64,000 nt of DNA from NCBI GenBank assembly GCA_938024995.1, contig CALJDU010000006.1, forward strand, positions 83,052-147,051. The letters run 5' to 3'. Below the pieces are notes generated by a model. That model was not told the DNA's origin, did not search any database, and saw only the letters and a program-made list of their open reading frames with translations. This DNA comes from an uncultured bacterium. GTDB lineage: Bacteria > Myxococcota_A > Polyangia > Polyangiales > Houyiibacteriaceae. Below are positions 29,140 to 54,918 of this stretch, in pieces. The first letter of the stretch is position 1. Every line of letters starts with the position of its first letter. The position numbers and the translations under genes were made by a program.

Positions 29140-29148
29140 CTCTTGGAG

Positions 29149-43594: not shown

Positions 43595-43673
43595 ACGAGC
43601 GGAGCCGTTGGTGCGGCACGCGGGTTGTAACCCCGCCGGCTCTGTCCAAGGAGGTTCGATTCCTTCCCGCTCG
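43595..43673 (+). tRNA. tRNA-Tyr (anticodon GUA), class II with long variable arm
   Basis: Acceptor cgagcgg/ccgctcg perfect; anticodon arm gcggg-TTGTAAC-cccgc; 13-nt variable arm; T-arm ggagg-TTCGATT-ccttc; short D-loop. Confidence 0.5.
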
Positions 43674-43678
43674 ACTGG

Positions 43679-43836
43679 GTTTTGGGAGGGTCTGTTCGGA
43701 CCCTCCCTCCAAATAGCCAAGTGATTTGGAGCCTCCCTCCTACGTTCGCTTCGCTCAGTTTTTGGAGGGTCTGTTCGGACCCTCCCTCCAAATAACCAAG
43801 TGATTTGGAGCCTCCCTCCTACGTTCGCTTCGCTCA
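43679..43836. repeat. Two tandem 79-bp copies of array repeat family (hairpin ggagggtc-tgttcg-gaccctcc + tail ttggagcctccctcctacgttcgcttcgctcag)
   Basis: Directly visible; copies 43679-43757 and 43758-43836 are ~97% identical. Confidence 0.8.
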
Positions 43837-43941
43837 TCGCTCCTTCGTCGCTCTTGTTCGTGCTCGCGTGCGTTCGTTTCCTCGTCACTCGCTTCGCTCG
43901 TTTTCGCCAACCCAACCCAACCCAACCTCAACACACAACAC

Positions 43942-44013
43942 GGGGCATTAGCTCAAAGGCTAGAGCAGCCGGCTCTTAACCGGTCGATCAGGGTTCGAGT
44001 CCCTGATGCCCTA
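43942..44013 (+). tRNA. tRNA-Lys (anticodon CUU)
   Basis: Canonical cloverleaf: ggggcat / gctc-aaaggct-gagc / gccgg-CTCTTAA-ccggt / caggg-TTCGAGT-ccctg / atgccct. Confidence 0.75.
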
Positions 44014-44167
44014 CCGCGCTCACGCGATCTCCGGATCGCCGCGGCGCCACGGCCGAGGTGCGCGCTTCGCGAGCCTCACGACCCTCGGGTCACCGTTGTT
44101 CTCGTTCTTTTGAAAACTCATGGATCGGTCGCCATCGGGCGCTCGATCTCATCTGAAGCACACACGT

Positions 44168-44240
44168 TCCGGATTGGTCCATTTGGTGAGGGCGCACGGC
44201 TCTGAACCGTGAGGGCGGGGTTCAAATCCCTGATCCGGAT
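44168..44240 (+). tRNA. tRNA-Gln (anticodon CUG)
   Basis: U1-A72 acceptor (tccggat/atccgga); D stem gtcc/gggc; anticodon arm cacgg-CTCTGAA-ccgtg; T-arm cgggg-TTCAAAT-ccctg. Confidence 0.6.
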
Positions 44241-44572
44241 CTGGTGTTCGCCTCGGTCATGCACGGGCTGCGTATTCGCGCTTGTCATCGACCAAGGCTG
44301 TGCCGCGGGACTCGTCCCGTTTTCAACCTGCTCGTCTCTCGGAGGAGAGGCGGGTGGAGCAGGTCGCTCCCCAAGGGAACGTCCTGGTGCTTCAGAGCTC
44401 CTTGAAAATCTGGGGACGCAGGGCGGTGTAGCGCCTGCCCTGCTCAAGTTCATTCGGTCTCGTGCCGCGTGGAGAGTTCACGCTCTTCGCGCGGCACGTC
44501 AGACCGGTATTCGTCGGGCCACCGTCCCCATCGATCGCTTCACCGTGATCGATGGGAGGGCCCGGCGCGTAT

Positions 44573-44647
44573 TCCGCTGAAGCTCATTGGAAGAGCACCC
44601 GGCTGTTAACCGGAGGGGTGCAGGTTCGAGTCCTGCCGGCGGAGCCA
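44573..44647 (+). tRNA. tRNA-Asn (anticodon GUU)
   Basis: tccgctg…cggcgga-G-CCA; loop CTGTTAA; T-arm gcagg-TTCGAGT-cctgc; CCA encoded. Confidence 0.75.
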
Positions 44648-44650
44648 AAT

Positions 44651-44723
44651 GTTTGGGTGGCGTAGCTGGTGCGCGCGCTTGGTTGAAGCCCAGGAGGAGC
44701 TGGTTCGATCCCGGCCCCAAACA
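44651..44723 (+). tRNA. tRNA-Phe (anticodon GAA)
   Basis: gtttggg/cccaaac acceptor; D gcgt/gcgc; anticodon arm cttgg-TTGAAGC-ccagg; T gctgg-TTCGATC-ccggc. Confidence 0.7.
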
Positions 44724-44761
44724 CCGGTCGATGGCTGTCATGCAGCCAGCGACCAAAGCAA

Positions 44762-44837
44762 CCGCTTGTCGTCTAACGGTTTAGGACGCTCGTCTGATAC
44801 ACGGGCAATGGAAGTTCGATTCTTCCCAAGCGGACCA
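44762..44837 (+). tRNA. tRNA-Ile (anticodon GAU)
   Basis: ccgcttg/caagcgg acceptor; anticodon arm ctcgt-CTGATAC-acggg; T ggaag-TTCGATT-cttcc; CCA encoded. Confidence 0.6.
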
Positions 44838-44902
44838 TGTTCTGTTCGACGGAACGAAAAACGCGCCGCCGAGGCGACGCGTTCTACGCTCTTCCGAGCC
44901 GC

Positions 44903-45955
44903 CTACCAGCGCACGAAGCGCGAGATGCGGCGCACGCGGGAGTGGCTGGAGCCATCCGAGTCGAGCGAGAGCTCGGCGAGTGTGGTGGAGTTTACGTGCG
45001 GGCCCACCGAGCTGTCGGAGACCGGGCTGTTTGCGTCGGCGCCGAGGTTGTAGGACCAGCATGCGCTGTAGTGCTGAGTCACGCTTGCGTACGCGGTCGA
45101 GCAGTTCGTGGTCGGGGAAGTGTCGTCGTCGCGGTCGAACGAGGACCAGCCCGCGTTCACCTGCGAGTTGAAGACGCCCATCGAGCCCGAGACGAACGTC
45201 GCAGAGATGCGCATTCGAACGGGATCGAACGCGCTCATGTCCGCGCGGACCGCGATTCGCTCAACGCCTCGTCGGTCTTCGAACACATCCATGAGGTCTC
45301 CTGTCGCGGCGATCTCGTAGAGCGAGCCATCGTAGAAGTTGGAGTTGATGCTGGGGCGACCGCGTCGCTCGAGGCGATTGCCGTAGGGGATGCGCCAGAA
45401 CTGAAGGGTGTTCGTTCCGAGGAGCGAGTTGTAGAGAAGCGCCCAACCACCACCGTCGAGCTCTTGCTCGCAGTACACCTCGACGACTTCCGAGCCAAGC
45501 ATCAGCCAGGTCGGACCCGATCGCGTCAAGCCTGCGTCACGCGCGGCCGCACAGCTCGCGGCGGGGTTGTCCATCGTCAATCCAGGGAGCGCGGGACCGG
45601 CTGCACCCGGTGCGCCGTCCATTCCTGGAGTTCCGGCGGCACCTGGTTCACCCGGCGCACCATCCGCTCCGTTCGTTCCGTTGATGCCGTCGGTGCCGTT
45701 CATCCCGGGCATGCCGGGGGCGCCCGATTCGCCGTTACAGATGGCGACGATCTGCTCGCCCGCTTGTATCTCGGCACCACCGTTCGCGCATCGCGGATCA
45801 CCCATGGGGATCGGCGTGACGCTCGGTGCGGGACCTGGCGTACCCATCGTGCCCATCTCGCCCATCGCGCCCATCTCTCCAGGCGGACCTTCTGTGCCTG
45901 TGCAGGCAACCAACAGTGTGAGCGCCGCGAGGGCAACCAGCTTCAAGTTGTTCAT
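44903..45955 (-). CDS. Lipoprotein with collagen-like Gly-X-Y triple-helix repeats and C-terminal fibrinogen-related (FReD) domain (ficolin-like architecture)
   Basis: Signal MNNLKLVALAALTLLVAC|TG. Two interrupted GXY runs: GPPGEMGAMGEMGTMGTPGPAPS … GESGAPGMPGMNGTDGINGTNGADGAPGEPGAAGTPGMDGAPGAAGP (about 18 GXY triplets in total), then …YCEQELDGGGWALLYN…FWRIPYG…NCSTAYASVTQHYSACWSYNLGADANSP resembling the fibrinogen C-terminal domain. Start at internal ATG 45955. Confidence 0.6.
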   Translation of the reverse strand: MNNLKLVALAALTLLVACTGTEGPPGEMGAMGEMGTMGTPGPAPSVTPIPMGDPRCANGGAEIQAGEQIVAICNGESGAPGMPGMNGTDGINGTNGADGAPGEPGAAGTPGMDGAPGAAGPALPGLTMDNPAASCAAARDAGLTRSGPTWLMLGSEVVEVYCEQELDGGGWALLYNSLLGTNTLQFWRIPYGNRLERRGRPSINSNFYDGSLYEIAATGDLMDVFEDRRGVERIAVRADMSAFDPVRMRISATFVSGSMGVFNSQVNAGWSSFDRDDDTSPTTNCSTAYASVTQHYSACWSYNLGADANSPVSDSSVGPHVNSTTLAELSLDSDGSSHSRVRRISRFVRW

Positions 45956-46039
45956 GTCTAACGATCTCCGAAAACCGGGGATCGAAGCGTCCTCCAAATA
46001 GGTCACGTTGGTTCGATTTGACCTGCTCTGTACAGATTT

Positions 46040-46111
46040 GCTCTCGATGCTCGATGGACGAGCAACCGTCTTCTAAACGGCTCGCTGCGGGTTCGACTCC
46101 TGCCGAGAGCG
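46040..46111 (+). tRNA. tRNA-Arg (anticodon UCU)
   Basis: gctctcg/cgagagc; D gctc/gagc; loop CTTCTAA; T gcggg-TTCGACT-cctgc. Confidence 0.7.
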
Positions 46112-46115
46112 CCGG

Positions 46116-46189
46116 ACCTTCGTGGCTCAAAGGAAGAGCGCGCGTTTCCTAAACGCGTGATGAGAGTTCGAGTCTCTCCGAAGGTGCCA
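46116..46189 (+). tRNA. tRNA-Arg (anticodon CCU)
   Basis: accttcg/cgaaggt; D gctc/gagc; anticodon arm cgcgt-TTCCTAA-acgcg; T gagag-TTCGAGT-ctctc; CCA encoded. Confidence 0.75.
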
Positions 46190-46262
46190 ACGATCTGGTG
46201 GCTCTACGCGCAGCGCTATCGCTTCGCTCACGGGCTTGCTTGCAAGCTCATCAAGTTCTTTA

Positions 46263-46335
46263 CGCCGGGCTCTGGGAAAGCTGGTTGGTTTCCAAATCCG
46301 ACTGCAGGCGAGGTTCAACTCCTCGACTGTGTTTT
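46263..46335 (+). pseudogene. tRNA-Trp-like pseudogene (CCA anticodon loop, degraded acceptor/D-arm)
   Basis: Near-identical to the 46467-46541 copy but with a broken acceptor 3' strand and a T·T in the anticodon stem. Confidence 0.3.
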
Positions 46336-46412
46336 TTGGAGGGTCTGTTCGGACCCTCCCTCCCAACGAACAAGTAGTTGGGAGCCTCCCTCCTACGTTC
46401 GCTTCGCTCAGT
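46333..46412. repeat. Array repeat family copy (hairpin + tail)
   Basis: ttggagggtctgttcggaccctccctcccaacgaacaagtagttgggagcctccctcctacgttcgcttcgctcag. Confidence 0.8.
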
Positions 46413-46466
46413 CGGATTCGCTTCGCTCATGGCTTGCTTGCACGCAGCCGTCAGCACCTTTTACGC

Positions 46467-46541
46467 CGGGCTCTGGGAAAGCTGGTTGGACTCCAAATCC
46501 GACTGCAGGCGAGGTTCAACTCCTCGACGGCGTGCCGCGCT
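46467..46541 (+). pseudogene. tRNA-Trp-like element (anticodon CCA), non-canonical D-arm; possible pseudogene
   Basis: Acceptor acgccgg/acggcgt (6/7 bp); anticodon arm ttgga-CTCCAAA-tccga; T cgagg-TTCAACT-cctcg; no foldable D stem. Confidence 0.3.
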
Positions 46542-46567
46542 CAGATGAGCGTTCCTTTGCAGTGATG

Positions 46568-46636
46568 AGTGGTTCTGGGGAGGGTTCATACCCCTCCCTT
46601 CGTCAGTTCGATTCTGACCGCTGCATCTGAGTTTCT
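46568..46636 (+). pseudogene. tRNA-Met-like element (anticodon CAU) with truncated D-arm
   Basis: Acceptor tgcagtg/cgctgca; 7-bp anticodon helix with loop TTCATAC; T gtcag-TTCGATT-ctgac; 5' half is 4 nt short. Confidence 0.3.
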
Positions 46637-46710
46637 TGGAGGGTCTATCCGACCCTCCCTCCCAACGAGCAAGTAGTTGGGAGCCTCCCTCTTTTGTTCG
46701 CTTCGCTCAG
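46632..46710. repeat. Array repeat family copy
   Basis: ttggagggtctatccgaccctccctcccaacgagcaagtagttgggagcctccctcttttgttcgcttcgctcag. Confidence 0.8.
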
Positions 46711-46847
46711 CGGGTTCGCTTCGCTCACGTCGTGCTCGCTGGCGTCAGCTCGCGAGCAGGAGAGCAAAAAACTGTCGGTCGTTCGTCGACCATGGCGGCA
46801 CGGCGGGCCGTCGCGTGCATCGGTGCGAAAGCAACGGTGCGCGCTTT

Positions 46848-46919
46848 GCCTTTCAAGCGTAGATGGCGACGCCCTCCGCTCGTAACGGGGAGAGCTGGGT
46901 TCAAGTCCCAGGAAAGGCT
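46848..46919 (+). tRNA. tRNA-Thr (anticodon CGU)
   Basis: gcctttc/gaaaggc; D gcgt/acgc; anticodon arm ctccg-CTCGTAA-cgggg; T ctggg-TTCAAGT-cccag. Confidence 0.7.
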
Positions 46920-46926
46920 CTGAGTA

Positions 46927-47003
46927 TTTTGGAGGGGCTGTCCGCCCCTCCCTCCCAACGAACAAGTAGTTGGGAGCCTCCCACCCATGTTCGCTTCGCT
47001 CAA
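46927..47003. repeat. Array repeat family copy (ggagggg-ctgtccg-cccctcc variant)
   Basis: Followed directly by MITE-like element Y (46990-47100). Confidence 0.8.
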
Positions 47004-47110
47004 TATTCTTTGTTCCGCGCCGCCGGCGCTGACGCCGCTCGGTCTTCGCTTCGCTCCGGACCTCGCGCCTACGCGCCTGCTCGGAACCAATATCGTTCGC
47101 TTCGCGAACT
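46985..47110. repeat. MITE-like element Y (reverse-complement copy of 21377-21470)
   Basis: ~95% identity over ~95 bp to the rc of the 21.4-kb copy; imperfect inverted termini. Confidence 0.55.
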
Positions 47111-47254
47111 CGGCGGCGTACTTCTGGAGGGGCTGCCGGCCTTCACCACCACGCGAACTCGCCGCCGTCTTTCGCGTTGCGGTTTTGCTTTGCGGTTTTG
47201 CTTTGCGGTTGCGTCGCATGTCGCCTCAAGCGTTCGTTGCTCTTGCCTCTCAAG

Positions 47255-47325
47255 CGTAGATAGCGACGCGCTTGGCTTGTAACTGAGAGAGCTGGGCGCA
47301 CGTCCCAGGAGAGGCTCTGTTTGTG
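47255..47325 (+). pseudogene. Degenerate duplicate of tRNA-Thr(CGU) (T-loop and anticodon arm mutated)
   Basis: caagcgtagatagcgacgc…agctgggcgcacgtcccagg aligns to 46851-46919, but the T-loop is cgcacgt and the anticodon arm is lost. Confidence 0.3.
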
Positions 47326-47354
47326 TTCGCGTTGCCGCTCGCGGCAACGCTTTT

Positions 47355-47425
47355 GCGGGTGTCGTCTAACGGTAAGACACCGGTCTTCCAAACCGTGAAT
47401 GAGGGTTCGATCCCCTTCTCCCGCT
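47355..47425 (+). tRNA. tRNA-Gly (anticodon UCC)
   Basis: gcgggtg…ctcccgc-T-CC; loop CTTCCAA; T gaggg-TTCGATC-ccctt; close to canonical bacterial Gly-UCC. Confidence 0.65.
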
Positions 47426-47590
47426 CCGATCGCGCCGGGCTTAGCAACTCGGCAGGTGTTCGTGACTCGTTGACTCGCTGAGTTTTTGCGTCTGCGATCA
47501 CTGGGAGCTCTGTTCCTCGCACGGGCGGCGTGCGGGCTTGTGCAGAGTCTCTCTCCTTCGCGCATCCAGCTCACGTTGCGATGCGCCCAT

Positions 47591-47667
47591 GACGCGTTGG
47601 TCTAGTTGGCAAGGACGTCTGATTCTCAATCAGAAGGTCACGGGTTCGATCCCCGTACGCGTCACCA
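47591..47667 (+). tRNA. tRNA-Glu (anticodon CUC)
   Basis: gacgcgt/acgcgtc; D gtc-tagttggcaa-gga (Glu-type D-arm); anticodon arm tctga-TTCTCAA-tcaga; CCA encoded. Confidence 0.75.
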
Positions 47668-47672
47668 AACAT

Positions 47673-47745
47673 ACTGCGTTGCGCATCTGGGATGCGGCTC
47701 GGTTGTCTCCCGAGTGAGACGGGTTCGATTCCCGTACGCAGTGCC
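47673..47745 (+). tRNA. tRNA-Asp (anticodon GUC), copy 1
   Basis: actgcgt/acgcagt; D cgca/tgcg; anticodon arm ctcgg-TTGTCTC-ccgag (U37 unusual); T acggg-TTCGATT-cccgt. Confidence 0.55.
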
Positions 47746-47771
47746 GCGTGAGAGCGCTGTTCGAGATACTT

Positions 47772-47845
47772 GCTGCGTTGTGCATCTGGGATGCAGACCC
47801 ACTGTCTATGGGTTGAGACGGGTTCAATTCCCGTACGTAGCGCCA
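47772..47845 (+). tRNA. tRNA-Asp (anticodon GUC), copy 2 (diverged paralog)
   Basis: gctgcgt/acgtagc; D tgca/tgca; anticodon arm accca-CTGTCTA-tgggt; T-loop TTCAATT; CCA encoded. Confidence 0.55.
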
Positions 47846-47873
47846 CCACGTTCGCAACACGCGAGCAGGGTCT

Positions 47874-47947
47874 ACGGCGATGGTCCAACGGAAAGATCCA
47901 TGGTTGCCAGCCACGAGATAGGGGTTCGATTCCCCTTCGCCGTACCA
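47874..47947 (+). tRNA. tRNA-Gly (anticodon GCC), odd D-arm
   Basis: acggcga/tcgccgt; anticodon arm catgg-TTGCCAG-ccacg; T agggg-TTCGATT-cccct; CCA encoded. Confidence 0.5.
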
Positions 47948-47951
47948 AACG

Positions 47952-48027
47952 TTTTGGAGGGTCAGTCGGACCCTCCCTCCCAACGGCTCTAGTTGGAAGC
48001 CACCCTCCTACGTTCGCTTCGCTCAGA
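47952..48027. repeat. Array repeat family copy
   Basis: ttggagggtcagtcggaccctccctcccaacggctctagttggaagccaccctcctacgttcgcttcgctcag. Confidence 0.8.
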
Positions 48028-48095
48028 GGATTCGCTTCGCTCATCTGCTTGCTCGCAGGGAGCGTGTCACGCGAAGCGTTCGCTGGAGGTTTCTT

Positions 48096-48182
48096 GGAAG
48101 GAGAATCGGCTAGGAGCCGGACTGGATTGCTAATCCATGTGTGCGTCTGTTGGCGCATGGGGATCGAGACCTCTTCCTTCCT
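48096..48182 (+). tRNA. tRNA-Ser-like (anticodon GCU), class II, non-canonical D-hairpin and T-loop
   Basis: Acceptor ggaagga/tccttcc perfect; 5-bp D hairpin cggct-agg-agccg; anticodon arm tgga-TTGCTAA-tcca; variable-arm hairpin tgcg/cgca; T-loop ATCGAGA lacks TΨC. Confidence 0.35.
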
Positions 48183-48187
48183 CCTTT

Positions 48188-48346
48188 TTATTGGAGGGTC
48201 TGTTCGGACCCTCCCTCCAAGTAAGTAAATGACTTGGAGCCTCCCTCCCACGTTCGCTTCGCTCTGTTTTTTGGAGGGTCAATCGGACCCTCCCTCCAAG
48301 TAAGTAAATGACTTGGAGCCTCCCTCCCACGTTCGCTTCGCTCTGA
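48188..48346. repeat. Two tandem copies of array repeat family
   Basis: 48188-48266 and 48268-48346; hairpin loops tgttcg vs aatcg. Confidence 0.8.
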
Positions 48347-48417
48347 CTCGCTCCGCTCGTCTTTGCGTGCTCGCGTGCATGGCAACGTTCGTTCTGGCCT
48401 CGCGAGAGGCAACACTT

Positions 48418-48490
48418 GGTGGTCTCGCACAGGTGTGTCCGCGCGGATGTGACCCGCGTCGGCAACGGGTTCAAGTCCCGCCGATCACCC
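48418..48490 (+). tRNA. tRNA-His-like (anticodon GUG), copy 1; lacks canonical G-1
   Basis: ggtggtc/gatcacc-C; anticodon arm cgcgg-ATGTGAC-ccgcg perfect; T (a)cggg-TTCAAGT-cccg; short D-loop. Confidence 0.4.
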
Positions 48491-48536
48491 CACTGTTCAC
48501 AGTTCACAACTGCTCTCCGAATTTCGGTGAGCACCC

Positions 48537-48607
48537 GGGCCTGTATTTCAACGGGAGAATGCTTGTTTCGCACGCAGGCGATGAGGGTTCGATTCCCTCC
48601 TGGTCCA
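48537..48607 (+). tRNA. tRNA-Ala (anticodon CGC) with G3·U70
   Basis: gggcctg/ctggtcc gives G3·U70 (the Ala identity pair) and U6·U67; D gttc/gaat-like; loop TTCGCAC; T gaggg-TTCGATT-ccctc. Confidence 0.6.
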
Positions 48608-48650
48608 CTGTCGCTTCGTCGCTCGCGTCGAAGCGAAGTTCGTTTCACTT

Positions 48651-48724
48651 GGTGGTCGCGCACAGGTGTGTCCGCGCGGATGTGACCCGCGTCGGCGTTC
48701 GGGTTCAAGTCCCGCCGATCACCC
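48651..48724 (+). tRNA. tRNA-His-like (anticodon GUG), copy 2
   Basis: Same structure as 48418-48490 with point differences; no CCA. Confidence 0.35.
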
Positions 48725-48863
48725 CGGGCTCTTCGGAGTCAACCTCAGGCTGAGGGCTCAGTAGGGAGCTTCCCGATTTGGACTCGGGCGGTGCAGGTGC
48801 AACTCCTGTCAGCTTGACCGGTGCGCCGCGTCTTCGTTCGACGAGATGCGGTGCGCTTGATCC

Positions 48864-48936
48864 TGGGCATGTAGTTCAACGGGAGAATGTCTGTCTTGCA
48901 CACAGCGGATGAGGGTTCGATCCCCTCCTTGTCCAC
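48864..48936 (+). tRNA. tRNA-Ala (anticodon UGC) with G3·U70
   Basis: gggcatg/cttgtcc; compensatory C5-G68 to A5-U68 change versus the CGC paralog; loop CTTGCAC; T gaggg-TTCGATC-ccctc. Confidence 0.6.
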
Positions 48937-49129
48937 CGGTTTTCTAGGGTCTTTTTTCGAAGACCCTCTCCGCTTCGCGGATTCACCCAAAACGTTCGCT
49001 TCGCTCTCTGCGCGCCCGCGTTAGCCAAAAGTCGTCCGCTCTGGTCGCAGCGCTCCCGGCGCTCCAGACGTTTTGGCGTCGCGGAGCTTGCTGTCTCAAT
49101 CTGTTGGGTCGTCTTCGAAAGACCCGTTT

Positions 49130-49200
49130 GCCCTTGCAGCACGATGGTCGTGCACTCCTCCGGTACAGGAGCGGAACGGGTTCGATTCCCGTCGAGGGCT
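49130..49200 (+). tRNA. tRNA-Thr (anticodon GGU)
   Basis: gcccttg/cgagggc; D gcac/gtgc; anticodon arm ctcct-CCGGTAC-aggag; T acggg-TTCGATT-cccgt. Confidence 0.65.
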
Positions 49201-49205
49201 CCGTG

Positions 49206-49284
49206 TTTTTTGGAGGGGCTGTCCGCCCCTCCCTCCAAACGAGCAAGTAGTTTGGAGCCTCCCTCCCATGTTCGCTTCGCTCAG
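49206..49284. repeat. Array repeat family copy (start of 240-bp tandem unit)
   Basis: ttggaggggctgtccgcccctccctccaaacgagcaagtagtttggagcctccctcccatgttcgcttcgctcag. Confidence 0.8.
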
Positions 49285-49366
49285 TATCGTTCGCTTCGCG
49301 AACTCGGATCCGTCTTTCGGGTTGCCTGGTTCGCCGGGCTGCAGGGGCAGAGCGTTCTCTGCTCTC

Positions 49367-49438
49367 GCGGGGTTTGTAGTCTGGGACTGCGCCACTCTTA
49401 CAAAGTGATTCAGCAGGGTTCGATTCCCTGACTCCGCA
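49367..49438 (+). tRNA. tRNA-Val (anticodon UAC), copy 1
   Basis: gcggggt/actccgc; D gtag/ctgc; anticodon arm ccact-CTTACAA-agtga; T caggg-TTCGATT-ccctg. Confidence 0.7.
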
Positions 49439-49602
49439 CCGCTGTGCTTTTGGAGGGGCTGTCCGCCCCTCCCTCCAAACGAGCAAGTAGTTTGGAGCCT
49501 CCCTCCCGTGTTCGCTCAGTATCGTTCGCTTCGCGAACTCGGCTCCGTCTTTCGGGTTGCCTGGTTCGCTGGGCTGCAGGGGGCAGAGCGTTCTTCGACT
49601 TC

Positions 49603-49674
49603 GCGGGGTTTGTAGTCTGGGACTGCGCCACTCTTACAAAGTGATTCAGCAGGGTTCGATTCCCTGACCCCGCA
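49603..49674 (+). tRNA. tRNA-Val (anticodon UAC), copy 2 (tandem duplicate)
   Basis: Identical to copy 1 except acceptor accccgc (perfect pairing); part of a ~240-bp tandem repeat. Confidence 0.7.
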
Positions 49675-49863
49675 CCGCTGTGTTTTTGGAGGGGCTGTCC
49701 GCCCTCCAAACGACTCTAGTTTGGAGCCTCCCTCCCATGTTCGCTTCGCTCAGTATCGTTCGCTTCGCGAACTCGGCTCCGTCTTTCGGGTTACCGGGTT
49801 CGACGGCCGCGCGGGAGCAGAGCGCTCCTCGACTTCGTCCTTCGTCGCTCTCTTCGTCTTCTT

Positions 49864-49938
49864 CTGGGCCTGTAGCTAAGCGGGAAAGCAGCCGGCTTTT
49901 AACCGGCAGATCGTGAGTTCAAATCTCACCGGGCCTAC
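49864..49938 (+). tRNA. tRNA-Lys (anticodon UUU)
   Basis: gggcctg/cgggcct; anticodon arm gccgg-CTTTTAA-ccggc; T gtgag-TTCAAAT-ctcac; CCA encoded. Confidence 0.7.
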
Positions 49939-49944
49939 CAATAA

Positions 49945-50020
49945 ATACTCTCGAAGCTCAACTGGATGAGCGCTCGGCTACGGACTGAGAGGGTGCAGGT
50001 TCGACTCCTGCCGAGAGTGC
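49945..50020 (+). tRNA. tRNA-Arg (anticodon ACG)
   Basis: actctcg/cgagagt; D gctc/gagc; anticodon arm ctcgg-CTACGGA-ctgag; T gcagg-TTCGACT-cctgc; CCA encoded. Confidence 0.8.
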
Positions 50021-50093
50021 CATGTCTCTTTACCCAAGTAAGCGGAGCAAGCAAGAAGGCGAGTCACGCGAAGACGTCAGCCCAGTTCGCGAA

Positions 50094-50180
50094 GCGAACG
50101 ATACTGAGCGAAGCGAACATGGGAGGGAGGCTCCAAACCATTTACTTGTTTGGAGGGAGGGGCGGACAGCCCCTCCAGAA
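50094..50180. repeat. Array repeat family copy, inverted orientation
   Basis: gagcgaagcgaacatgggagggaggctccaaacc…ggagggaggggcggacagcccctccag. Confidence 0.75.
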
Positions 50181-50186
50181 AGCATT

Positions 50187-50259
50187 GTGCTGGAGTACAG
50201 GCGCGACCGTCTCGGCTGCAACCCGATATGTGTGAGTTCAATTCTCACCCAGCACTCCA
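50187..50259 (+). tRNA. tRNA-Cys (anticodon GCA)
   Basis: gtgctgg/ccagcac-T-CCA; loop CTGCAAC; T gtgag-TTCAATT-ctcac; compact D region. Confidence 0.55.
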
Positions 50260-50260
50260 A

Positions 50261-50334
50261 GCTCCCATAGTGAAACGGAATCACGCTGGTCTCCGAAACC
50301 GGTAGTCCAAGTTCGAGCCTTGGTGGGAGTGCCA
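50261..50334 (+). tRNA. tRNA-Arg (anticodon CCG)
   Basis: gctccca/tgggagt; D gtga/tcac; anticodon arm ctggt-CTCCGAA-accgg; T ccaag-TTCGAGC-cttgg; CCA encoded. Confidence 0.7.
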
Positions 50335-50351
50335 ATCACGCAGTGAATTAA

Positions 50352-50421
50352 CGCTATGCGCCGCGGCCGGCAGACGCCTCTCATACGGGCGAGCTCGAAG
50401 GTTCAACTCCCTCCATAGCGA
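50352..50421 (+). tRNA. tRNA-Met (anticodon CAU), weak D-arm
   Basis: cgctatg/catagcg perfect; anticodon arm cgcct-CTCATAC-gggcg; T-loop TTCAACT. Confidence 0.45.
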
Positions 50422-50453
50422 CTGGGTCTCCGGACCTTAACATCCGAGTGTAG

Positions 50454-50530
50454 CTCAGCCTGGAAGAGCACACCGTTCGGGACGGTGAGGTCGCAGGTTC
50501 GGATCCTGTCACTCGGACCATTCTATCCGC
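50454..50530 (+). tRNA. tRNA-Pro (anticodon CGG)
   Basis: Fully canonical: ccgagtg / gctc-agcctggaa-gagc / caccg-TTCGGGA-cggtg / gcagg-TTCGGAT-cctgt / cactcgg-A-CCA. Confidence 0.85.
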
Positions 50531-50565
50531 GTCGCAAACATCACTGGCGTCGCGAGCACGTCGAT

Positions 50566-50660
50566 GAGCGAAGCGAATCCGCTGAGCGAAGCGAACATGG
50601 GAGGGAGGCTCCCAACTACTTGCTCGTTGGGAGGGAGGGGCGGACAGCCCCTCCAAAAAG
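50566..50660. repeat. Array repeat family copy, inverted orientation
   Basis: gagcgaagcgaatccgctgagcgaagcgaacatgggagggaggctcccaactacttgctcgttgggagggaggggcggacagcccctccaa. Confidence 0.75.
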
Positions 50661-50665
50661 CACAG

Positions 50666-50741
50666 CAGGGTGAAGTCTTGTCGGGAAGACGCTCGTCTGG
50701 GAGGCGAGAGGTTGCTGGTTCAACTCCAGCCACCCTGACCA
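50666..50741 (+). tRNA. tRNA-Pro (anticodon GGG)
   Basis: cagggtg/caccctg; anticodon arm ctcgt-CTGGGAG-gcgag; T gctgg-TTCAACT-ccagc; CCA encoded. Confidence 0.8.
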
Positions 50742-50746
50742 ATTTG

Positions 50747-50820
50747 GTTTCCATAGTGAAAAGGAATCACACGAGCTTGCGGAGCTCGCATTCTAGGTTC
50801 GAGTCCTAGTGGAAACGCCA
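50747..50820 (+). tRNA. tRNA-Arg (anticodon GCG)
   Basis: gtttcca/tggaaac; D gtga/tcac (same D-arm as Arg-CCG); anticodon arm cgagc-TTGCGGA-gctcg; T ctagg-TTCGAGT-cctag; CCA encoded. Confidence 0.7.
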
Positions 50821-50881
50821 ATCGAGCCTGCTCGAGTCGACGCACGCTTGGAGAGAGCCGGCGAGCATGAGAGCAAGCTGC

Positions 50882-51050
50882 TCGCTGATGCGGACTAGGG
50901 ACGCGCAAAGCGCGAACCGAAGGGAGCATCAATCACGCGGCGCGATGGGGGTGAATGCCGAAGGCAGAGGGGGGAACGCCCTGCAAGCGGTCGTGGTGAT
51001 GCGGACAAGGTACGCGCAAAGCGCGAACCGAAGGGAGCATCGCGCACTGC
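50882..51050. repeat. Two direct ~50-bp repeats (gatgcggac.agg.acgcgcaaagcgcgaaccgaagggagcatc) separated by ~70 bp
   Basis: 50882-50931 and 50999-51049 differ at about 3 positions. Confidence 0.6.
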
Positions 51051-51124
51051 CGCGCGCAGCAGAGCGAAGCGAACGGCGGGAAGCGCGAAGCGCTGGGGTC
51101 TGCGACTCAGACCCCATAGATTTA

Positions 51125-51205
51125 GCCTAGGTGGCGGAACGGTTTACGCAGCGGTCTCAGACTCCGTGCCCTCAAGGGATGCAGGTTCGACTCCTGTCCT
51201 AGGTA
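51125..51205 (+). tRNA. tRNA-Leu (anticodon CAG), class II
   Basis: gcctagg/cctaggt; 3-bp D stem gcg/cgc; loop CTCAGAC; variable-arm hairpin ccc-tcaa-ggg; T gcagg-TTCGACT-cctgt; A73. Confidence 0.6.
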
Positions 51206-51337
51206 CCGCGCTCAGCGATGAGCGTTACACGATCGAAATGGTTCGGTCGTGGTCAGTCGCGCTCGGATCCTCTCCGAGCCGATGCTGTTCGCGTTTGCGA
51301 GCGGCGCCATTTGGCGCGCGCGTGACCACGTGCGCGC

Positions 51338-51880
51338 ATGAAACGCGCAAACCGCGCGAGGAGGTGGCCCATGCGCACGCTCGTACTGGACCAAGGTTAC
51401 CAACCGCACCGCATCGTCTCCTGGGAGAAGGCGGTCACCATGCTCTACGTCGGAAAGGCCGACCTCGTGGAGCACTACGACGACGAGATCCGCTCGACCA
51501 GCATGACGATGTTCATGCCGGCGGTCGTTCGGCTCACCCGCGGGCTCAAGTACCGCAAGAAGTCGATCAAGTTCTCGCGGCTCAACGTCATGATGCGTGA
51601 CGGATTCTCCTGCCAGTACTGCGGCACCGAGATGAAGATGCGCGACCTCACGTACGACCACGTCCTGCCGCGCGCGCGCGGAGGGAAGACCACGTGGACG
51701 AACATCGTGACCGCGTGCCGTGACTGCAACGAGCAGAAGGCCGACCGCACTCCGAAGGAGGCAGGGATGCCCCTTCTGAAGAAGCCCATCAAGCCGCTCT
51801 GGCTGCCGACAGGATCGTTTCACGTAGACGACCTCCGGCTCCCCGAGACCTGGCGGAACTGGGTGTCGTGGGCTGCCTAA
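51338..51880 (+). CDS. HNH endonuclease
   Basis: HNH motif YDHVLPRARGGKTTWTNIVTACRDCNEQK (His-Asn-His plus a Cys zinc finger); sits inside the tRNA array. Confidence 0.75.
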   Translation: MKRANRARRWPMRTLVLDQGYQPHRIVSWEKAVTMLYVGKADLVEHYDDEIRSTSMTMFMPAVVRLTRGLKYRKKSIKFSRLNVMMRDGFSCQYCGTEMKMRDLTYDHVLPRARGGKTTWTNIVTACRDCNEQKADRTPKEAGMPLLKKPIKPLWLPTGSFHVDDLRLPETWRNWVSWAA

Positions 51881-51928
51881 AGCAGCACTTGTTCTCGCTC
51901 GCTTGAGCTTGTCTCGAGCGAGCATCCA

Positions 51929-52002
51929 CACCACTGTGGCCCAACTGGAAGAGGCGTCTGACTAAGGATCAGAAGGTTGTGAGTTCGAATCTCACCAGTG
52001 GT
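51929..52002 (+). tRNA. Class-I-length tRNA with Leu anticodon AAG and A73 (unusual)
   Basis: accactg/cagtggt; D gcc(c)/ggc; perfect anticodon arm tctga-CTAAGGA-tcaga; 5-nt variable loop; T gtgag-TTCGAAT-ctcac. Confidence 0.5.
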
Positions 52003-52006
52003 ACCG

Positions 52007-52079
52007 AACCATCGTGGCCCAACGGAAGAGGCACCTGTTTCAAACTCAGGGTGTTGTGAGTTCGACTCTCACCGATGGT
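52007..52079 (+). tRNA. Class-I-length tRNA with Leu anticodon CAA and A73 (paralog of previous)
   Basis: accatcg/cgatggt; same D-arm; anticodon arm cctgt-TTCAAAC-tcagg (U·U closing pair); T gtgag-TTCGACT-ctcac. Confidence 0.45.
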
Positions 52080-52087
52080 ACCGATTA

Positions 52088-52400
52088 CTTGGGGGGATTT
52101 TTCGATCCCCCTCTCTCCCGTTGGTCGACTCACCCCAAACGTTCGCTCCGCTCTGGCTGCGCGCGAAGTGCGCGCCGCTCCTCGACCGGTCGCTTTGCTC
52201 CCCATCTCGTTGCGTCACCACGTCGCTTGCTCTTGTTTCCTAAGGGGATTTTTCGAGACCCTTCTCGGCTTCGCCGATTCATCCCAAACGTTCGCTTCGC
52301 TCTGCTGCGCACACAAATGCGCGACGCTCTCTTCGGTCAGCGCTTTGCGCTTCCCTTGTCGTGTCACCAATTGTGTTTGCTTCATGCTTGCTCGCTCGTC
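52088..52400. repeat. Two ~150-bp direct repeats of hairpin + conserved tail (ggggattttcgatcccc… / ggggatttttcgagaccc… …ccaaacgttcgct(c/t)cgctctg(g)ctgcgc)
   Basis: 52088-52240 and 52245-52400 share ~70% identity, including the palindromic head and acgttcgcttcgctc tail. Confidence 0.6.
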
Positions 52401-52515
52401 TCTGCACCTTTGGTGCGTTCGACTTGCTTTGCGGCTCCGAAACTACGCGTCGCATTCCGCGGCGCTTCGCGTTCGTGTTCTTTCTGTTGCCGCGGGTGGA
52501 CGCGAACGTGAATCT

Positions 52516-52599
52516 CGAAGGTAATTTGATCTGGAGATCAACGCCGCCTTGAAAGCGGAGGGAGCCGAGAGGCTTGGAGTTCAATTCTTCTACCTTCGG
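52516..52599 (+). tRNA. tRNA-Ser (anticodon UGA), class II with unusual 5-bp D-hairpin
   Basis: cgaaggt/accttcg perfect; D hairpin tgatc-tgga-gatca; anticodon arm ccgc-CTTGAAA-gcgg; variable hairpin gcc-gaga-ggc; T-loop TTCAATT. Confidence 0.45.
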
Positions 52600-52604
52600 C
52601 AAGT

Positions 52605-52688
52605 GGAAGAGGATCTGATCCGGGATCAGGGCCGAGTGGAAATCGGTGCGCGCCTTCTCGGCGTGGGGTTCGACTCCTCTCTCTTCCT
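52605..52688 (+). tRNA. tRNA-Ser (anticodon GGA), class II with unusual D-hairpin
   Basis: ggaagag/ctcttcc perfect; D hairpin ctgat-ccggg-atcag; anticodon arm ccga-GTGGAAA-tcgg; 6-bp variable hairpin cgcgcc/ggcgtg; T gggg-TTCGACT-cctc. Confidence 0.45.
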
Positions 52689-52859
52689 CCCTTCCCAACA
52701 ACAACCGTCGCGAGCCCTCGCGCGGCAGCCACCGCGGAGCGAGCGTTCAAACACCAAAGCGAAGCGACGTGTTTGGACTGTCGCGGAGCGGGCGAACGAA
52801 TGTGAGCGTGGGTGAATGCGCGAAGCGCAGAGGGGCGCAATCGCCCCTTCAAACAACAT

Positions 52860-52947
52860 CGAAGACAAACTGATCTGGGATCAGGCCTGCCTCGAAAACA
52901 GTGCGCGCCTTGATCGGCGTGAGGTTCGATTCCTCTGTCTTCGGCCA
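52860..52947 (+). tRNA. tRNA-Ser (anticodon CGA), class II with unusual D-hairpin
   Basis: cgaagac/gtcttcg-G-CCA; D hairpin ctgatc-tggg-gatcag; anticodon stem ctg(c)/(a)cag with compensatory C-G to U-A change versus the GGA paralog; loop CTCGAAA; T gagg-TTCGATT-cctc. Confidence 0.45.
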
Positions 52948-53060
52948 CTGCCCGCGGAGCTCGGCAACGAGACCTGCAAGAGCTCCTCCCGTCACTCGCG
53001 GTTCACCGGCACCTCATCAGGTCCGGTCGCTTCGCACCCACGCGCTCATCTGCGCTCTTT

Positions 53061-53137
53061 GTCCTTGTCGTCTAATGGTTCAGGATTTTCCGGCTTTCAA
53101 CCGGTGGATGCGGGTTCGAATCCCGCCGGGGACGCCA
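53061..53137 (+). tRNA. tRNA-Glu (anticodon UUC)
   Basis: gtccttg…cggggac-G-CCA; D gtct-aatggttc-agga; loop CTTTCAA; T gcggg-TTCGAAT-cccgc; closely matches the E. coli Glu pattern. Confidence 0.8.
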
Positions 53138-53188
53138 TTCTCATCGCGCCATCGCGCATCACTTTTCACCGCTCACCTTGAGGTCGTC

Positions 53189-54589
53189 ATGGAATCGCTC
53201 GTCCACGCCGCGCCGACTGAGGTGCGCAAACGAAATGAACACACGTCCCCAGAGTCGCGCGTCGCGCTTTACGCGGCGATCGGCAGCCCGCGTTCCATTC
53301 TCAGAGCGCGACCCACAACGGAAGAGCGACGGATCGAAGACGCGGAAGTGGTCTCGGCCGCCGCGCGTGTGTCCCCCAAGTTCCTCGCTGCCCACGCGCT
53401 CGCCTCGCGCGCGCTCGGGGAGTCTTCCCGTGCGCCCGCGCTCTTGTGCGCGCTCCTCTCTCATCGGGATCCGGCTCTCCTCGCGGAGGTCTTCCCATGC
53501 GTCATCAATACGCCCGCGCTCGTGCGTCGCTTCGTCGGCGTTGTGCGCTCGGGCGTGAGCGGTCGTCGCTCGCTCGGGAGCGCGCCGAAACGCTTGATCG
53601 CGCGTTGGCTGCGATCGCTGTCAGACGACGCGGTGCTGACGAACGGCGCGAAGCTGCGCGACGTGATCCGCTTGTCTCATCCGCGACCTCGGTCCCGTGC
53701 CCGTGCGGCGCTGTATCGGCTTCTGCTCTCACGTCCATACGATGCCCATCGCTTGCCGAGATTGGCGAGCATGTGGGTCGCGTCCCAGAGCGGTGGCGAT
53801 ATCGACGAGCTCCCGCTCTCGCTCTGTCGCGTTAAGAAGGTCGGGATCCGCGCTCCGAGCGAGTATCTCCCTGCAGTCGCGCGAGCGTCTGCGCATGAGC
53901 TCGTGACGTCGCTCGATTGGCTGCGCGGGTTCGCCGACGACGCGCTCGTGGCCGCGGTCGCGACGCGACTTCGTGAGGCACGGGCCGAAGATGTGCGTCC
54001 CTACGCGCTGCTCCGTCTCCTTCGCGCGACGAGCTCACCCCGCGAGTGGGTGGACGCTGGGTTTTCACTTCTCGATCGCGCGAGTGAACGATCGAGCGAG
54101 GTTCGCGGGACGCTCGTCGTGGACACGAGCGCTTCGATGACCGCGCCCCTCTTCGCTACGCGAGGTGAGCGTCGAGATCCGATCGATGGACTGGATGTCG
54201 CGGCGCTCCTCATGACGACCCTCCGGGGACCTCATTTGCACGTGGTCGACTTCGCGGGTCGCCCGCTCTCGTCCGAGGGCGGCGTCCAAGATGTTCGCGG
54301 TCGTCTGGGGAATCTCCTCAGCTCGCCGCGTTCTGTCTCAAGCGCGATCGAGCAGCGGAGCGGAGAAATGATCGTGGTCACCGACGACGTCGGCTCGGAG
54401 CGCGCCTTGGCGCGTCTTGGTCAACGTCATGGCGCCGCGCTCAGCGTCGTCGACCTGTGCCCGACGAGCGTGGGTCAAGTGGCCGTCCGCTCCACCCGTT
54501 TCGCGGGTTTCAACGACATCTCGCTTCAGGTCCTGATGGACCGCGCCCAGCAAAAGACCTCTGTCCAGGAGGCCCGCTGGGCGTCTTAA
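53189..54589 (+). CDS. rsr: Ro60/TROVE-domain protein with C-terminal vWA domain (Rsr, Ro sixty-related RNA-binding protein)
   Basis: Recalled TROVE-like motifs: GRRSLGSAPKRLIARWL resembles GWGRGLR.AVA.WY, and NGAKLRDVIRLSHPRP resembles GWSHRDLLRLAHPKP. C-terminal MIDAS motif in LVVDTSASMTAP. Start ATG 53189 (an alternative TTG at 53177); the longer ORF 52901.. overlaps the tRNAs. Confidence 0.65.
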   Translation: MESLVHAAPTEVRKRNEHTSPESRVALYAAIGSPRSILRARPTTEERRIEDAEVVSAAARVSPKFLAAHALASRALGESSRAPALLCALLSHRDPALLAEVFPCVINTPALVRRFVGVVRSGVSGRRSLGSAPKRLIARWLRSLSDDAVLTNGAKLRDVIRLSHPRPRSRARAALYRLLLSRPYDAHRLPRLASMWVASQSGGDIDELPLSLCRVKKVGIRAPSEYLPAVARASAHELVTSLDWLRGFADDALVAAVATRLREARAEDVRPYALLRLLRATSSPREWVDAGFSLLDRASERSSEVRGTLVVDTSASMTAPLFATRGERRDPIDGLDVAALLMTTLRGPHLHVVDFAGRPLSSEGGVQDVRGRLGNLLSSPRSVSSAIEQRSGEMIVVTDDVGSERALARLGQRHGAALSVVDLCPTSVGQVAVRSTRFAGFNDISLQVLMDRAQQKTSVQEARWAS

Positions 54590-54706
54590 ACACCTCACGT
54601 CTCTTTTCCGTCGCGCCGCCCGCGATGGCTTGGATCCGCGTGAGTCACTTGAGAGCACTCCTGGATGGCGTTGAGATCGCGCCCGTGCTAATCCCGTCCC
54701 CGATTT

Positions 54707-54780
54707 TCCGGAGTCGTCTAATGGCAGGACAGCGGACTTTGAATCCGTGAATGGTGGTTCGAATCCACCCTCTGGAACCA
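54707..54780 (+). tRNA. tRNA-Gln (anticodon UUG)
   Basis: U1-A72 acceptor tccggag/ctctgga-A-CCA; anticodon arm gcgga-CTTTGAA-tccgt; T ggtgg-TTCGAAT-ccacc. Confidence 0.8.
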
Positions 54781-54918
54781 AACCCAGCGCGAACCTCGCG
54801 CTGGGTCTTTTAATGGCGTGGTGTCTTCTCATGGCGTGCTTGGGCCAGCGTCCGCTTTGGCGGAGAGATTCGCTTCGTGAATCGCGACGTGTAGACTTAG
54901 CGCAGGAGGCTCTCTTTC

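Follow-up and report, generated by a model that had tools for sequence, protein, structure and literature searches.

The spacers of a large array of transfer RNA (tRNA) genes in an uncultured bacterium (Myxococcota_A; Polyangiales; Houyiibacteriaceae) contain a family of hairpin-forming repeats that dock beside the tRNA genes. We analysed 64,000 nucleotides of its chromosome (GenBank assembly GCA_938024995.1, contig CALJDU010000006.1, positions 83,052 to 147,051 of the forward strand). This whole stretch is referred to below as the window, and coordinates are counted from its first letter. The array occupies positions 43596-54780 and comprises 34 tRNAs called by ARAGORN, all on the plus strand. 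We favour, with moderate confidence, the interpretation that the elements are non-coding palindromic DNA, similar to repetitive extragenic palindromes (REPs) and bacterial interspersed mosaic elements (BIMEs), which has settled in the spacers of a conserved tRNA array of Myxococcota. Repetitive DNA fits better than a required RNA signal because the elements are patchily present among equally distant relatives, are rapidly replaced at fixed slots, are amplified in tandem, lie in either orientation and are also found beyond the array. The family is well documented and moderately unusual, and is not a new kind of system; its docking habit is unusual and statistically strong.

Two-hairpin repeats with a fixed tail

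Using a covariance model built from 13 aligned copies, we scanned both strands of the whole window with filters switched off. The model recovers 13 copies of one type (type A, 72–109 bits), all within 43679-50660 of the array. Seven copies of a second type (type B) score 15–30 bits against this type A-built model: five lie in the array and two at 29139-29400. No further score rises above noise in the remaining 53 kb on either strand. The 13-nt tail of the elements, GTTCGCTTCGCTC, occurs 24 times in the window with at most one mismatch (0.5 expected), and TTGGAGCCTCCCTCC occurs 22 times with at most three mismatches (2 expected). A repeat finder clusters the copies into families of 34–156 nt. 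Of the 20 copies, none is coding; 11 come after a tRNA or tRNA-like gene and one after a stop codon.

Type A units are ∼80 nt long and have a constant order: a short CTRNR/T-rich linker (the T-run), a first hairpin (H1), a second hairpin (H2), a pyrimidine tract CCTCCCTCC, YAY, the tail and AG. H1 consists of GGAGGGKC, a loop of 5–6 nt and GMCCCTCC (8 bp). H2 abuts H1 without a gap and consists of CTCCMARN, a loop of 7–9 nt and NYTKGGAG (8 bp). In the reference copy A9 (49206-49284, plus strand; 108.9 bits), the consensus structure places the T-run at 49206-49211, the arms of H1 at 49212-49219 and 49225-49232, the arms of H2 at 49233-49240 and 49250-49257, the pyrimidine tract, or third arm, at 49258-49266 and the tail at 49270-49282.

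The pairing of both stems is preserved. RNAalifold applied to the aligned type A copies finds exactly two 8-bp helices, H1 and H2, and 99% of the 203 stem cells of the 13-copy alignment (16 pairs) are paired. Compensatory Watson–Crick changes are seen at four pairs: T-A/G-C in H1, and A-T/C-G, A-T/G-C and C-G/T-A in H2. Among the 203 cells there are no G-U pairs, and no pair has changed on one side only. Changes on both sides are found in 16 cells compared with 5.6 in shuffled alignments, none of 500 shuffles reaching 16, and sliding the alignment lowers pairing to 42–62%. The covariation is genuine yet modest. The lack of G-U pairs, together with the strand-symmetric docking described below, points to hairpins in DNA no less than in RNA.

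The pyrimidine tract copies the 3' arm of H1, producing a 9-nt direct repeat on either side of H2, which gives the 5' arm of H1 two possible pairing partners. A pyrimidine-motif triple helix, with CCTCCC of the third arm parallel to GGAGGG, is geometrically possible; it is inapplicable to type B and needs protonated cytosines. We rejected a closing helix CUGAG/CUCAG around the unit: it appears in some minimum-energy folds, and the flank variants CTGTG and CCGTG cannot pair.

Type B elements follow the same plan with other sequences: a T-rich lead, an H1 of the form GGGTCT../..AGACCC, TCTC, a small H2 (such as TCCGC-TTC-GCGGA), TTCACCCAAAAC and the tail. RNA folding of copy B1 (48940-49008, plus strand; 29.3 bits) gives GGGTCTT/AAGACCC as H1 and TCCGC-TTC-GCGGA as H2, followed by TTCACCCAAAAC and the tail. 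The tail motif is also found solitary or doubled, for example at 46213, 46416, 46714 and 48030, often followed by GCTTGCTYGCA and located ∼55 nt upstream of tRNA-like genes. A related palindrome, GTTCGC-TTC-GCGAAC, comes after four copies. The array spacers are thus built as a mosaic from a small set of modules.

An earlier note on this DNA, made from the letters alone, had reported such a family. Its copies all lie at or within a few bases of the positions that it gave, its count of 18 in the array and two outside agrees with the covariance scan, copies in both orientations are present (A12, A13, B4 and B5 are inverted), and the copies align into the two-hairpin consensus. The selection on structure that it proposed is backed by the compensatory changes. 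Other statements needed revision. The palindrome that it described is H1, and the tail was correctly recognised; its partial third arm, ttggagcctccctcc, is the 3' arm of H2 (CTCCMARN/NYTKGGAG) joined to the pyrimidine tract, H2 itself having been missed. The stem variants that it noticed exist, and they divide into two sub-families, type A with GGAGGGKC stems and type B with GGGTCT-like stems and a different H2. Finally, the 18 or more copies are not all independent: some form two 79-nt dimers, and A9–A11 belong to a 236-nt repeat present 2.7 times.

Docking beside tRNA genes and hairpin feet

The elements adjoin tRNA genes by a constant end. In A1, A5, A6, A7, A9, A10, A11, B1 and B2, all on the plus strand, the T-run or H1 end lies 0–6 nt from the 3' end of a tRNA. 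A1 (43679-43758; 89.1 bits) is found 4 nt past tRNA-Tyr (43596-43675), A5 (46925-47003; 104.1 bits) 4 nt past tRNA-Thr(cgt), and A6 (47950-48026; 84.3 bits) 4 nt past tRNA-Gly(gcc), with an extra tail at 48030-48042. A7 (48187-48266; 99.3 bits) comes directly past a tRNA-Ser(gct)-like gene that relaxed ARAGORN settings place at 48096-48184. A9 is 3 nt past tRNA-Thr(ggt), and B1 is 2 nt past tRNA-Ala(tgc). A10 (49446-49524; 89.7 bits), which has a tail 5 nt shorter, is 6 nt past a tRNA-Val gene, and A11 (49682-49753; 71.9 bits), in which the alignment shows a 6-nt deletion in the 3' arm of H1, is 6 nt past a second one. B2 (52085-52155; 29.9 bits) is 2 nt past tRNA-Leu(caa).

All four inverted copies have the same end 0–6 nt before the 5' end of the next tRNA. 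These are A12 (50104-50182, minus strand; 104.3 bits), 3 nt before tRNA-Cys (5' end at 50187; 31.3 bits); A13 (50582-50660, minus; 107.9 bits), 5 nt before tRNA-Pro(ggg) at 50666, with an extra tail at 50566-50578; B4 (51060-51121, minus; 26.7 bits), 3 nt before tRNA-Leu(cag) at 51125; and the degenerate B5 (52784-52856, minus; 15.4 bits), 3 nt before tRNA-Ser(cga) at 52860. At the opposite, tail end of the elements the next tRNA is 42–359 nt away. The foot of H1 is separated from the foot of the acceptor stem by 8–11 nt, whichever strand carries the element.

We counted 14 independent array units by setting aside the second units of dimers and the tandem-derived copies. Ten of the 14, including all four inverted ones, are docked within 6 nt of a high-confidence tRNA border; the chance per unit is 0.038, which gives P ∼6e-12. 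Two further units follow tRNA-like cloverleaves: A3 (46332-46411, plus; 104.8 bits; extra tail motif at 46416-46428) abuts a Trp-like pseudo-tRNA at 46259-46331, and A4 (46632-46710, plus; 102.2 bits; extra tail at 46714-46726) comes after a fold with an acceptor-like stem, a CAT loop and a T-arm GTCAGTTCGATTCTGAC. The orientation ratio after removal of duplicates is 10:4 (P = 0.18). The docking rule is strand-symmetric: read along its own strand, an element always comes after the 3' side of an acceptor-type stem.

Docking without tRNAs is seen in the related array L103, which has 25 tRNAs and the syntenic chorismate-binding gene. It contains four copies of a third type (type C, ∼100 nt) with an extra hairpin GCCCTCGCC/GGCGAGGG. 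The core of type C is formed by H1 GAGGAGGGC-TTCGC-GCCCTCCTC, H2 CCGGCGC-AAG-GCGCCGG, the third arm CTCCCTCCTCC, GCGG and then GTCGCTTCGCTC. Type C therefore keeps a GGAGGG-type H1, a third arm copying the 3' arm of H1, and the tail; its H2 is a different hairpin. The four copies adjoin no tRNA. Instead, a long perfect hairpin stands before each of them, its foot 9–10 nt 5' of where the copy starts, and these four hairpins are mutually unrelated in sequence. Taken together, the strand-symmetric docking, the placement of type C and the exclusively Watson–Crick compensation point to recognition of DNA hairpins, most likely in single-stranded DNA.

Insertion sequences of the IS200/IS605 type, insertion sequences that target REP hairpins and class C group II introns, which insert after terminator stems, find their sites by single-strand structure. 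The present elements may likewise be placed as DNA, at a single-stranded site 3' of a stable stem's foot. Both strands of a tRNA gene would offer such a foot, which would explain the strand-symmetric rule, and a hairpin-recognising enzyme would do the placing. The copies may then be homogenised or exchanged by gene conversion, with the conserved linker, the base of H1 and the tail providing homology.

Position directly past gene 3' ends, including that of one protein-coding gene, is also what would be expected of transcription terminators or insulators. These could be intrinsic, or could depend on Rho, in which case the C-rich third arm and tail would serve as a rut site. The third arm and tail are pyrimidine-rich, and some 80-nt windows past the elements have a C/G ratio of at least 2. 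We consider such a role most improbable. On the sense strand the T-run comes before the hairpin, and on the opposite strand it reads as an A-run; 18 terminator-like sites are found in the array, no excess over shuffled sequences (12.9 ± 3.6), and none of them is an element hairpin in the right sense. The C-rich windows are few and unsystematic, and inverted copies would present a G-rich tail. A promoter scan found no sigma-70-like promoter.

Presence and turnover in related arrays

Homologous arrays with an HNH endonuclease gene after tRNA-Leu were found on at least seven related metagenomic contigs (L102, L103, L104, L106, L109, L113 and L114), with 14–36 tRNAs seen per contig. The elements are present in the window, L103 and L114. 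The element model has no match in L102, L104, L106, L109 or L113, and the tail motif is missing from the arrays of L102, L104, L106 and L109, the four that were searched for it. In L113, 14 tRNAs fit within 2.9 kb, each separated from the next by a few bases. Arrays of this kind therefore do not require the element.

Comparison with L114, which is 91.6% identical to window positions 50783-52082, reveals turnover at fixed slots. Upstream of tRNA-Leu(cag) both sequences have an inverted type B copy (B4 in the window), and H2 and the pyrimidine tract differ between them. Upstream of tRNA-Ser(cga), the window has the degenerate type B copy B5, whereas L114 has an intact inverted type A; the A-rich linker of ∼10 nt to the tRNA is kept. 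After tRNA-Leu(caa), a 364-nt block at 52083-52446, comprising B2 and B3 (52236-52304, plus; 18.9 bits; no adjoining tRNA), is present in the window and absent from L114, the junctions reading GGTACC|A|GCGTCGCATT in L114 and GGTACC|block|GCGTCGCATT in the window. From this comparison we infer that copies are exchanged by gene conversion.

Local spread by tandem duplication is shown by two structures. A1 and A2 (43758-43837, plus; 98.6 bits) form a 79-nt head-to-tail dimer (Tandem Repeats Finder, period 79 ×2), as do A7 and A8 (48267-48345, plus; 99.7 bits), and the two dimers are 85% identical. A 236-nt unit composed of an element, a spacer and tRNA-Val is repeated 2.7 times and includes A9–A11. 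Paralogous tRNA-like units also exist with and without an element: 46460-46545 lacks the one that A3 represents, and the pseudo-Thr unit at 47243-47320 lacks the counterpart of A5. A decayed 5' part of a type A element (TTCTGGAGGGGCTGCCGGCC...) remains at 47122-47155 on the plus strand (repeat family D3, 68%).

The exchange of copies at fixed slots, the varying order of tRNAs between related arrays, and the position of elements at the ends of tRNA units, with structure kept while sequence varies, would also be compatible with integron attC-like sites: folded single-stranded ends of cassettes, by which a site-specific recombinase assembles and shuffles tRNA genes. This is very unlikely in our judgement. 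There is no integrase or recombinase in or near the array among the 30 open reading frames (ORFs) of the window that were scanned. RYYYAAC/GTTRRRY core pairs are missing from the elements: GTTCGCT departs from RRR and has no inverted partner. Copies occur in both orientations and as head-to-tail dimers, and most arrays of the same gene content have no elements.

Probable co-transcription with the tRNAs

The only canonical intrinsic terminator of the region is located directly past the last tRNA, at 54782-54806 (an 11-bp stem followed by CTTTTAAT). A single terminator at this position suggests long polycistronic transcription, in which the elements are probably co-transcribed with the tRNAs. 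Many array tRNAs end in CCG or without CCA after the discriminator (e.g. 44013-44018, 49438-49443, 51205-51210 and 52080-52085); only some encode CCA, which implies dependence on 3' trimming and CCA addition. Co-transcribed elements would form stable hairpins, with a U-rich (or A-rich) single-stranded linker between them and the tRNA.

Co-transcription raises the alternative that the elements are functional punctuation of the tRNA precursor: selected hairpins whose U-rich linker would be an entry site for an RNase E/G-type enzyme, and which would block exonucleases or stop spacers from misfolding with the tRNAs. RNase E favours AU-rich single strands near hairpins, and the elements are directly at tRNA ends with a U-rich linker between. 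Compensatory changes keep their structure, and slots are filled in both the window and L114 despite replaced sequence. We nevertheless regard this reading as unlikely. Five homologous arrays, the compact L113 among them, do without the element. The four inverted copies would present the complement and an A-run in the RNA, and the orientation bias is slight once duplicates are removed. In L103 the elements sit beyond long hairpins, one with TTCTTTC after it; two copies follow a protein-coding gene; and G-U pairs are absent. If the elements are colonising palindromic DNA, their hairpins in the tRNA transcript would be tolerated and may incidentally help to separate precursors, and the array would not need them.

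Comparison with known repetitive elements

REPs and BIMEs are extragenic palindromes and mosaic clusters, and carry GTAG or CGTC tags that abut one end of the stem (PMC3733652). The present elements resemble them in being short extragenic palindromes with 8–9 bp stems and small loops, located mostly just downstream of genes, in both orientations. They share the mosaic association with other motifs, the species-specific sequence, the turnover at conserved intergenic slots and the probable transcription. A REP is a single imperfect palindrome of 20–40 bp, and each hairpin here measures 21–25 nt. Several differences are apparent. The repeated unit is ∼80 nt, with two different hairpins and a fixed 13-nt tail. 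Neither a GTAG nor a CGTC tag abuts a stem: a T-run precedes H1, and GT(A/G)G on the opposite strand is found in only six of 13 copies, 8 nt from the stem of H2. The dimers are exclusively head-to-tail with a period of 79, unlike REP doublets forming hairpins (REPINs), which are head-to-head or tail-to-tail. No REP-associated tyrosine transposase (RAYT) or Y1 transposase gene was found among the 30 scanned ORFs. REPs are dispersed through a genome in tens to hundreds of copies and flank a RAYT gene; within the 64-kb window the present copies cluster in a single tRNA array and dock at the borders of tRNA genes, a habit that to our knowledge has not been described for REPs.

Classical miniature inverted-repeat transposable elements (MITEs) were ruled out, as terminal inverted repeats and target duplications are missing: the ends are CTRNR/T-run and GCTCAG, with at most a 5-nt CTGAG/CTCAG match in some copies only, and no flank is duplicated in 11 junction pairs. 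Parallels are offered by the palindrome-associated transposable elements (PATEs) derived from IS200/IS605 and by structure-guided insertions. These likewise have no terminal inverted repeats or target-site duplications, have sub-terminal hairpins, and place one defined end on the target, 3' of a stem foot. The present elements differ in that no Y1/HUH transposase, TnpB or reverse transcriptase was found and no fixed cleavage or guide tetranucleotides were seen; they are also far smaller than introns. Integron attC sites share the folded form, the conserved structure with variable sequence and the position at the ends of gene units in an array. In contrast to them, the elements have no R/L core boxes (R''-L''...L'-R', GTTRRRY) and no integrase, are in mixed orientations and tandem dimers, and their "cassettes" would be tRNA genes. 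In Entamoeba, repetitive non-coding DNA also lies between arrayed tRNA genes (cited in PMC4758250 and PMC2652664); it is eukaryotic and microsatellite-like, without the hairpin architecture or the docking rule. The survey of tRNA arrays mentions no such repeats in bacteria (PMC4758250).

Several observations weigh against the interpretation as REP/BIME-like DNA that we favour. None of the 30 ORFs scanned in these 64 kb of genome is a transposase, integrase, recombinase or HUH/Y1 gene. We found neither a target-site duplication nor a clean empty site of a single element; the sole indel seen, of 364 nt, spans two elements together with spacer sequence. None of the 13 type A copies lies outside the array, a distribution that agrees with local duplication and conversion as well as with transposition. 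The second units of dimers, B3, B6 and B7 are not preceded by a stem foot. The filling of the same slots in the window and L114 with different sequence could mean that a hairpin is selected there.

Among the functions that the earlier note had offered, REP-like repetitive DNA is the best supported, in a form that is neither a classical MITE nor a tagged REP. Termination, also suggested there, conflicts with the T-run preceding the hairpin and with a terminator scan that calls none of the elements. Its proposal of a recombination substrate holds as far as recombination between copies is a mode of their spread and turnover, and does not extend to shuffling of tRNA cassettes.

A bolder version of the mobile-DNA interpretation, which we think rather unlikely, would make the elements a new class of miniature mobile DNA that homes to single strands, landing ∼10 nt beyond a stable stem's foot on its 3' side. 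It would prefer tRNA genes for the acceptor-stem foot that they have on both strands, and the tail and the duplicated H1 arm would be the parts for enzyme recognition or strand exchange. On this view, finding the same tail next to GGAGGG-type hairpins in Aminicenantes, Desulfobacterota and Caulobacterales would indicate a widespread, horizontally transferred system.

If docking reflects a real insertion mechanism, it would represent a small bacterial element that targets the borders of tRNA genes by structure. Targeting of tRNA borders is known for eukaryotic retroelements and bacterial integrases; we know of no case among repeats of REP size. The conserved tRNA super-array that this Myxococcota lineage has near dnaA is a hot spot for the turnover of repeats, and offers a handle for strain typing. 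For the same reason such arrays break in metagenome assemblies: in a second assembly of the same sequence the contig breaks exactly at the repeats. If the elements are instead RNA signals, they would be natural spacers for the processing of long tRNA precursors, useful for synthetic tRNA arrays.

The tail motif in other genomes

One genome collection was scanned with the query CCTCCNNNGTTCGCTTCGCTC. The scan returned no close relative of the source genome; its 99 matches were single or in other repeat families, and none was beside a tRNA. The motif was found in repeat families of Brevundimonas/Caulobacter, Acetobacteraceae, Hyphomonadaceae, Terricaulis, Aminicenantes, Desulfaltia, haloarchaea and Sporosarcina. 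Brevundimonas copies score 25–37 bits with the type A model, compared with ∼17–24 bits for seeded chance matches. We do not claim them as homologues, as a full reading shows a different nested palindrome. Among the alphaproteobacterial copies, a CCTCCCC/GGGGAGG hairpin within a larger nested palindrome carries the motif as its loop, an architecture unlike that of type A. In Brevundimonas/Caulobacter (L004, L006, L016, L018, L030, L034, L039, L094, L099 and others), this palindrome reads GGGGGAGGGGGACC...GGTGGAGGGGGCG...CGCCCCCTCCACC...GGTCCCCCTCCCCC-loop-GGGGAGGA, and the terminal loop is GTTCGCTTCGCTC.

Copies of the Aminicenantes type have TTGGAGGG...CCCTCCAACGTTCGCTTCGCTCTCTGC in common with type B and are located in ordinary intergenic DNA. 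Aminicenantes, Desulfaltia and one bin labelled Eubacteriales (L003, L020, L021, L028 and L076) contain an intergenic element of more than 150 nt, in which TTGGAGGG..CCCTCCAACGTTCGCTTCGCTC is followed by several more hairpins. The Aminicenantes/Desulfaltia element is near-identical between bins of different phyla. Sharing of the tail motif across these groups may reflect common descent, horizontal transfer or convergent GC-rich purine/pyrimidine palindromes.

Megablast against phage records gave no match to the array, and of two pattern scans of viral contigs one gave three stray matches and the other none; thus there is no evidence of phage origin. Rfam searches of the window and ten related loci, with gathering and E-value thresholds, returned matches to the tRNA clan only. 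Literature searches with the motif strings turned up nothing but primers and unrelated papers.

Copies outside the array, host tRNA array and neighbouring genes

The two copies outside the array sit in an ordinary intergenic region near 29.2 kb. B6 (29139-29218, plus; 27.2 bits) begins at the stop codon of a gene for an Rce1-like protease (27508-29139, Pfam), and B7 (29344-29400, plus; 16.6 bits) is upstream of a PDZ-domain gene (29492-30277, Pfam).

The window, which comes from a metagenome assembly, is part of a high-GC bacterial chromosome. Its genes include those for FG-GAP/ASPIC proteins, an MFS-acyltransferase, a flavin adenine dinucleotide (FAD) oxidase, a chorismate-binding enzyme, RuvC and DnaA. 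The array ends ∼5 kb upstream of dnaA (60074-61504). In addition to the 34 ARAGORN calls, the array has tRNA-Cys, Ser(tga), Ser(gct), two His and two Trp-like genes, so that all 20 amino acids are covered. Below the default thresholds of ARAGORN and Rfam are several duplicated or degenerate tRNA-like genes: two Trp-like genes (46259-46331 and 46454-46536), the pseudo-Thr (47243-47320), two His genes (48419-48492 and 48652-48725) and the CAT-loop cloverleaf (46560-46626). The gene at 52515-52599 scores 53.3 bits with the Rfam tRNA-Sec model (gathering score 47), and relaxed ARAGORN calls it tRNA-Ser(tga); it is probably a class II serine tRNA and not a selenocysteine tRNA.

An HNH (McrA-like) endonuclease gene is located inside the array at 51371-51880, and in all seven homologous arrays. 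It lies downstream of tRNA-Leu genes wherever the upstream sequence is readable, is conserved at identities as low as 49%, and occurs independently of the repeats. The protein is 70% identical in L103 and 49% identical in L106, an array of 36 tRNAs and the sole locus from the metagenome scan with the HNH protein. A homologue at L107 is outside any array. Homologues of the protein are labelled Myxococcota, Myxococcales or Sandaracinaceae.

A gene with collagen repeats and a fibrinogen-C-like part (44903-46006, minus strand) lies within the array on the opposite strand. Tried as an anchor for orthologous arrays, it led to closest homologues (53–55% identity) outside tRNA arrays, and it looks like a lineage-specific insertion. 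An ORF of 466 amino acids (53188-54588, plus) between tRNA-Glu(ttc) and tRNA-Gln(ttg) has no Pfam match and is ∼74% identical to L114 at the nucleotide level.

The spacers contain further repeats. A direct repeat of ∼58 nt (GATGCGGAC.AGG.ACGCGCAAAGCGCGAACCGAAGGGAGCATC) is found at 50886-50944 and 50997-51054, upstream of B4, and twice in L114 too. Microsatellite-like tracts are (CCAAC)5 at 43907-43932 and a 13-nt unit TTGCGGTTTTGCT, repeated 2.6 times at 47177-47210. About 4 kb upstream of the array is a gene similar to D12-class N6-adenine DNA methyltransferases (38678-39979).

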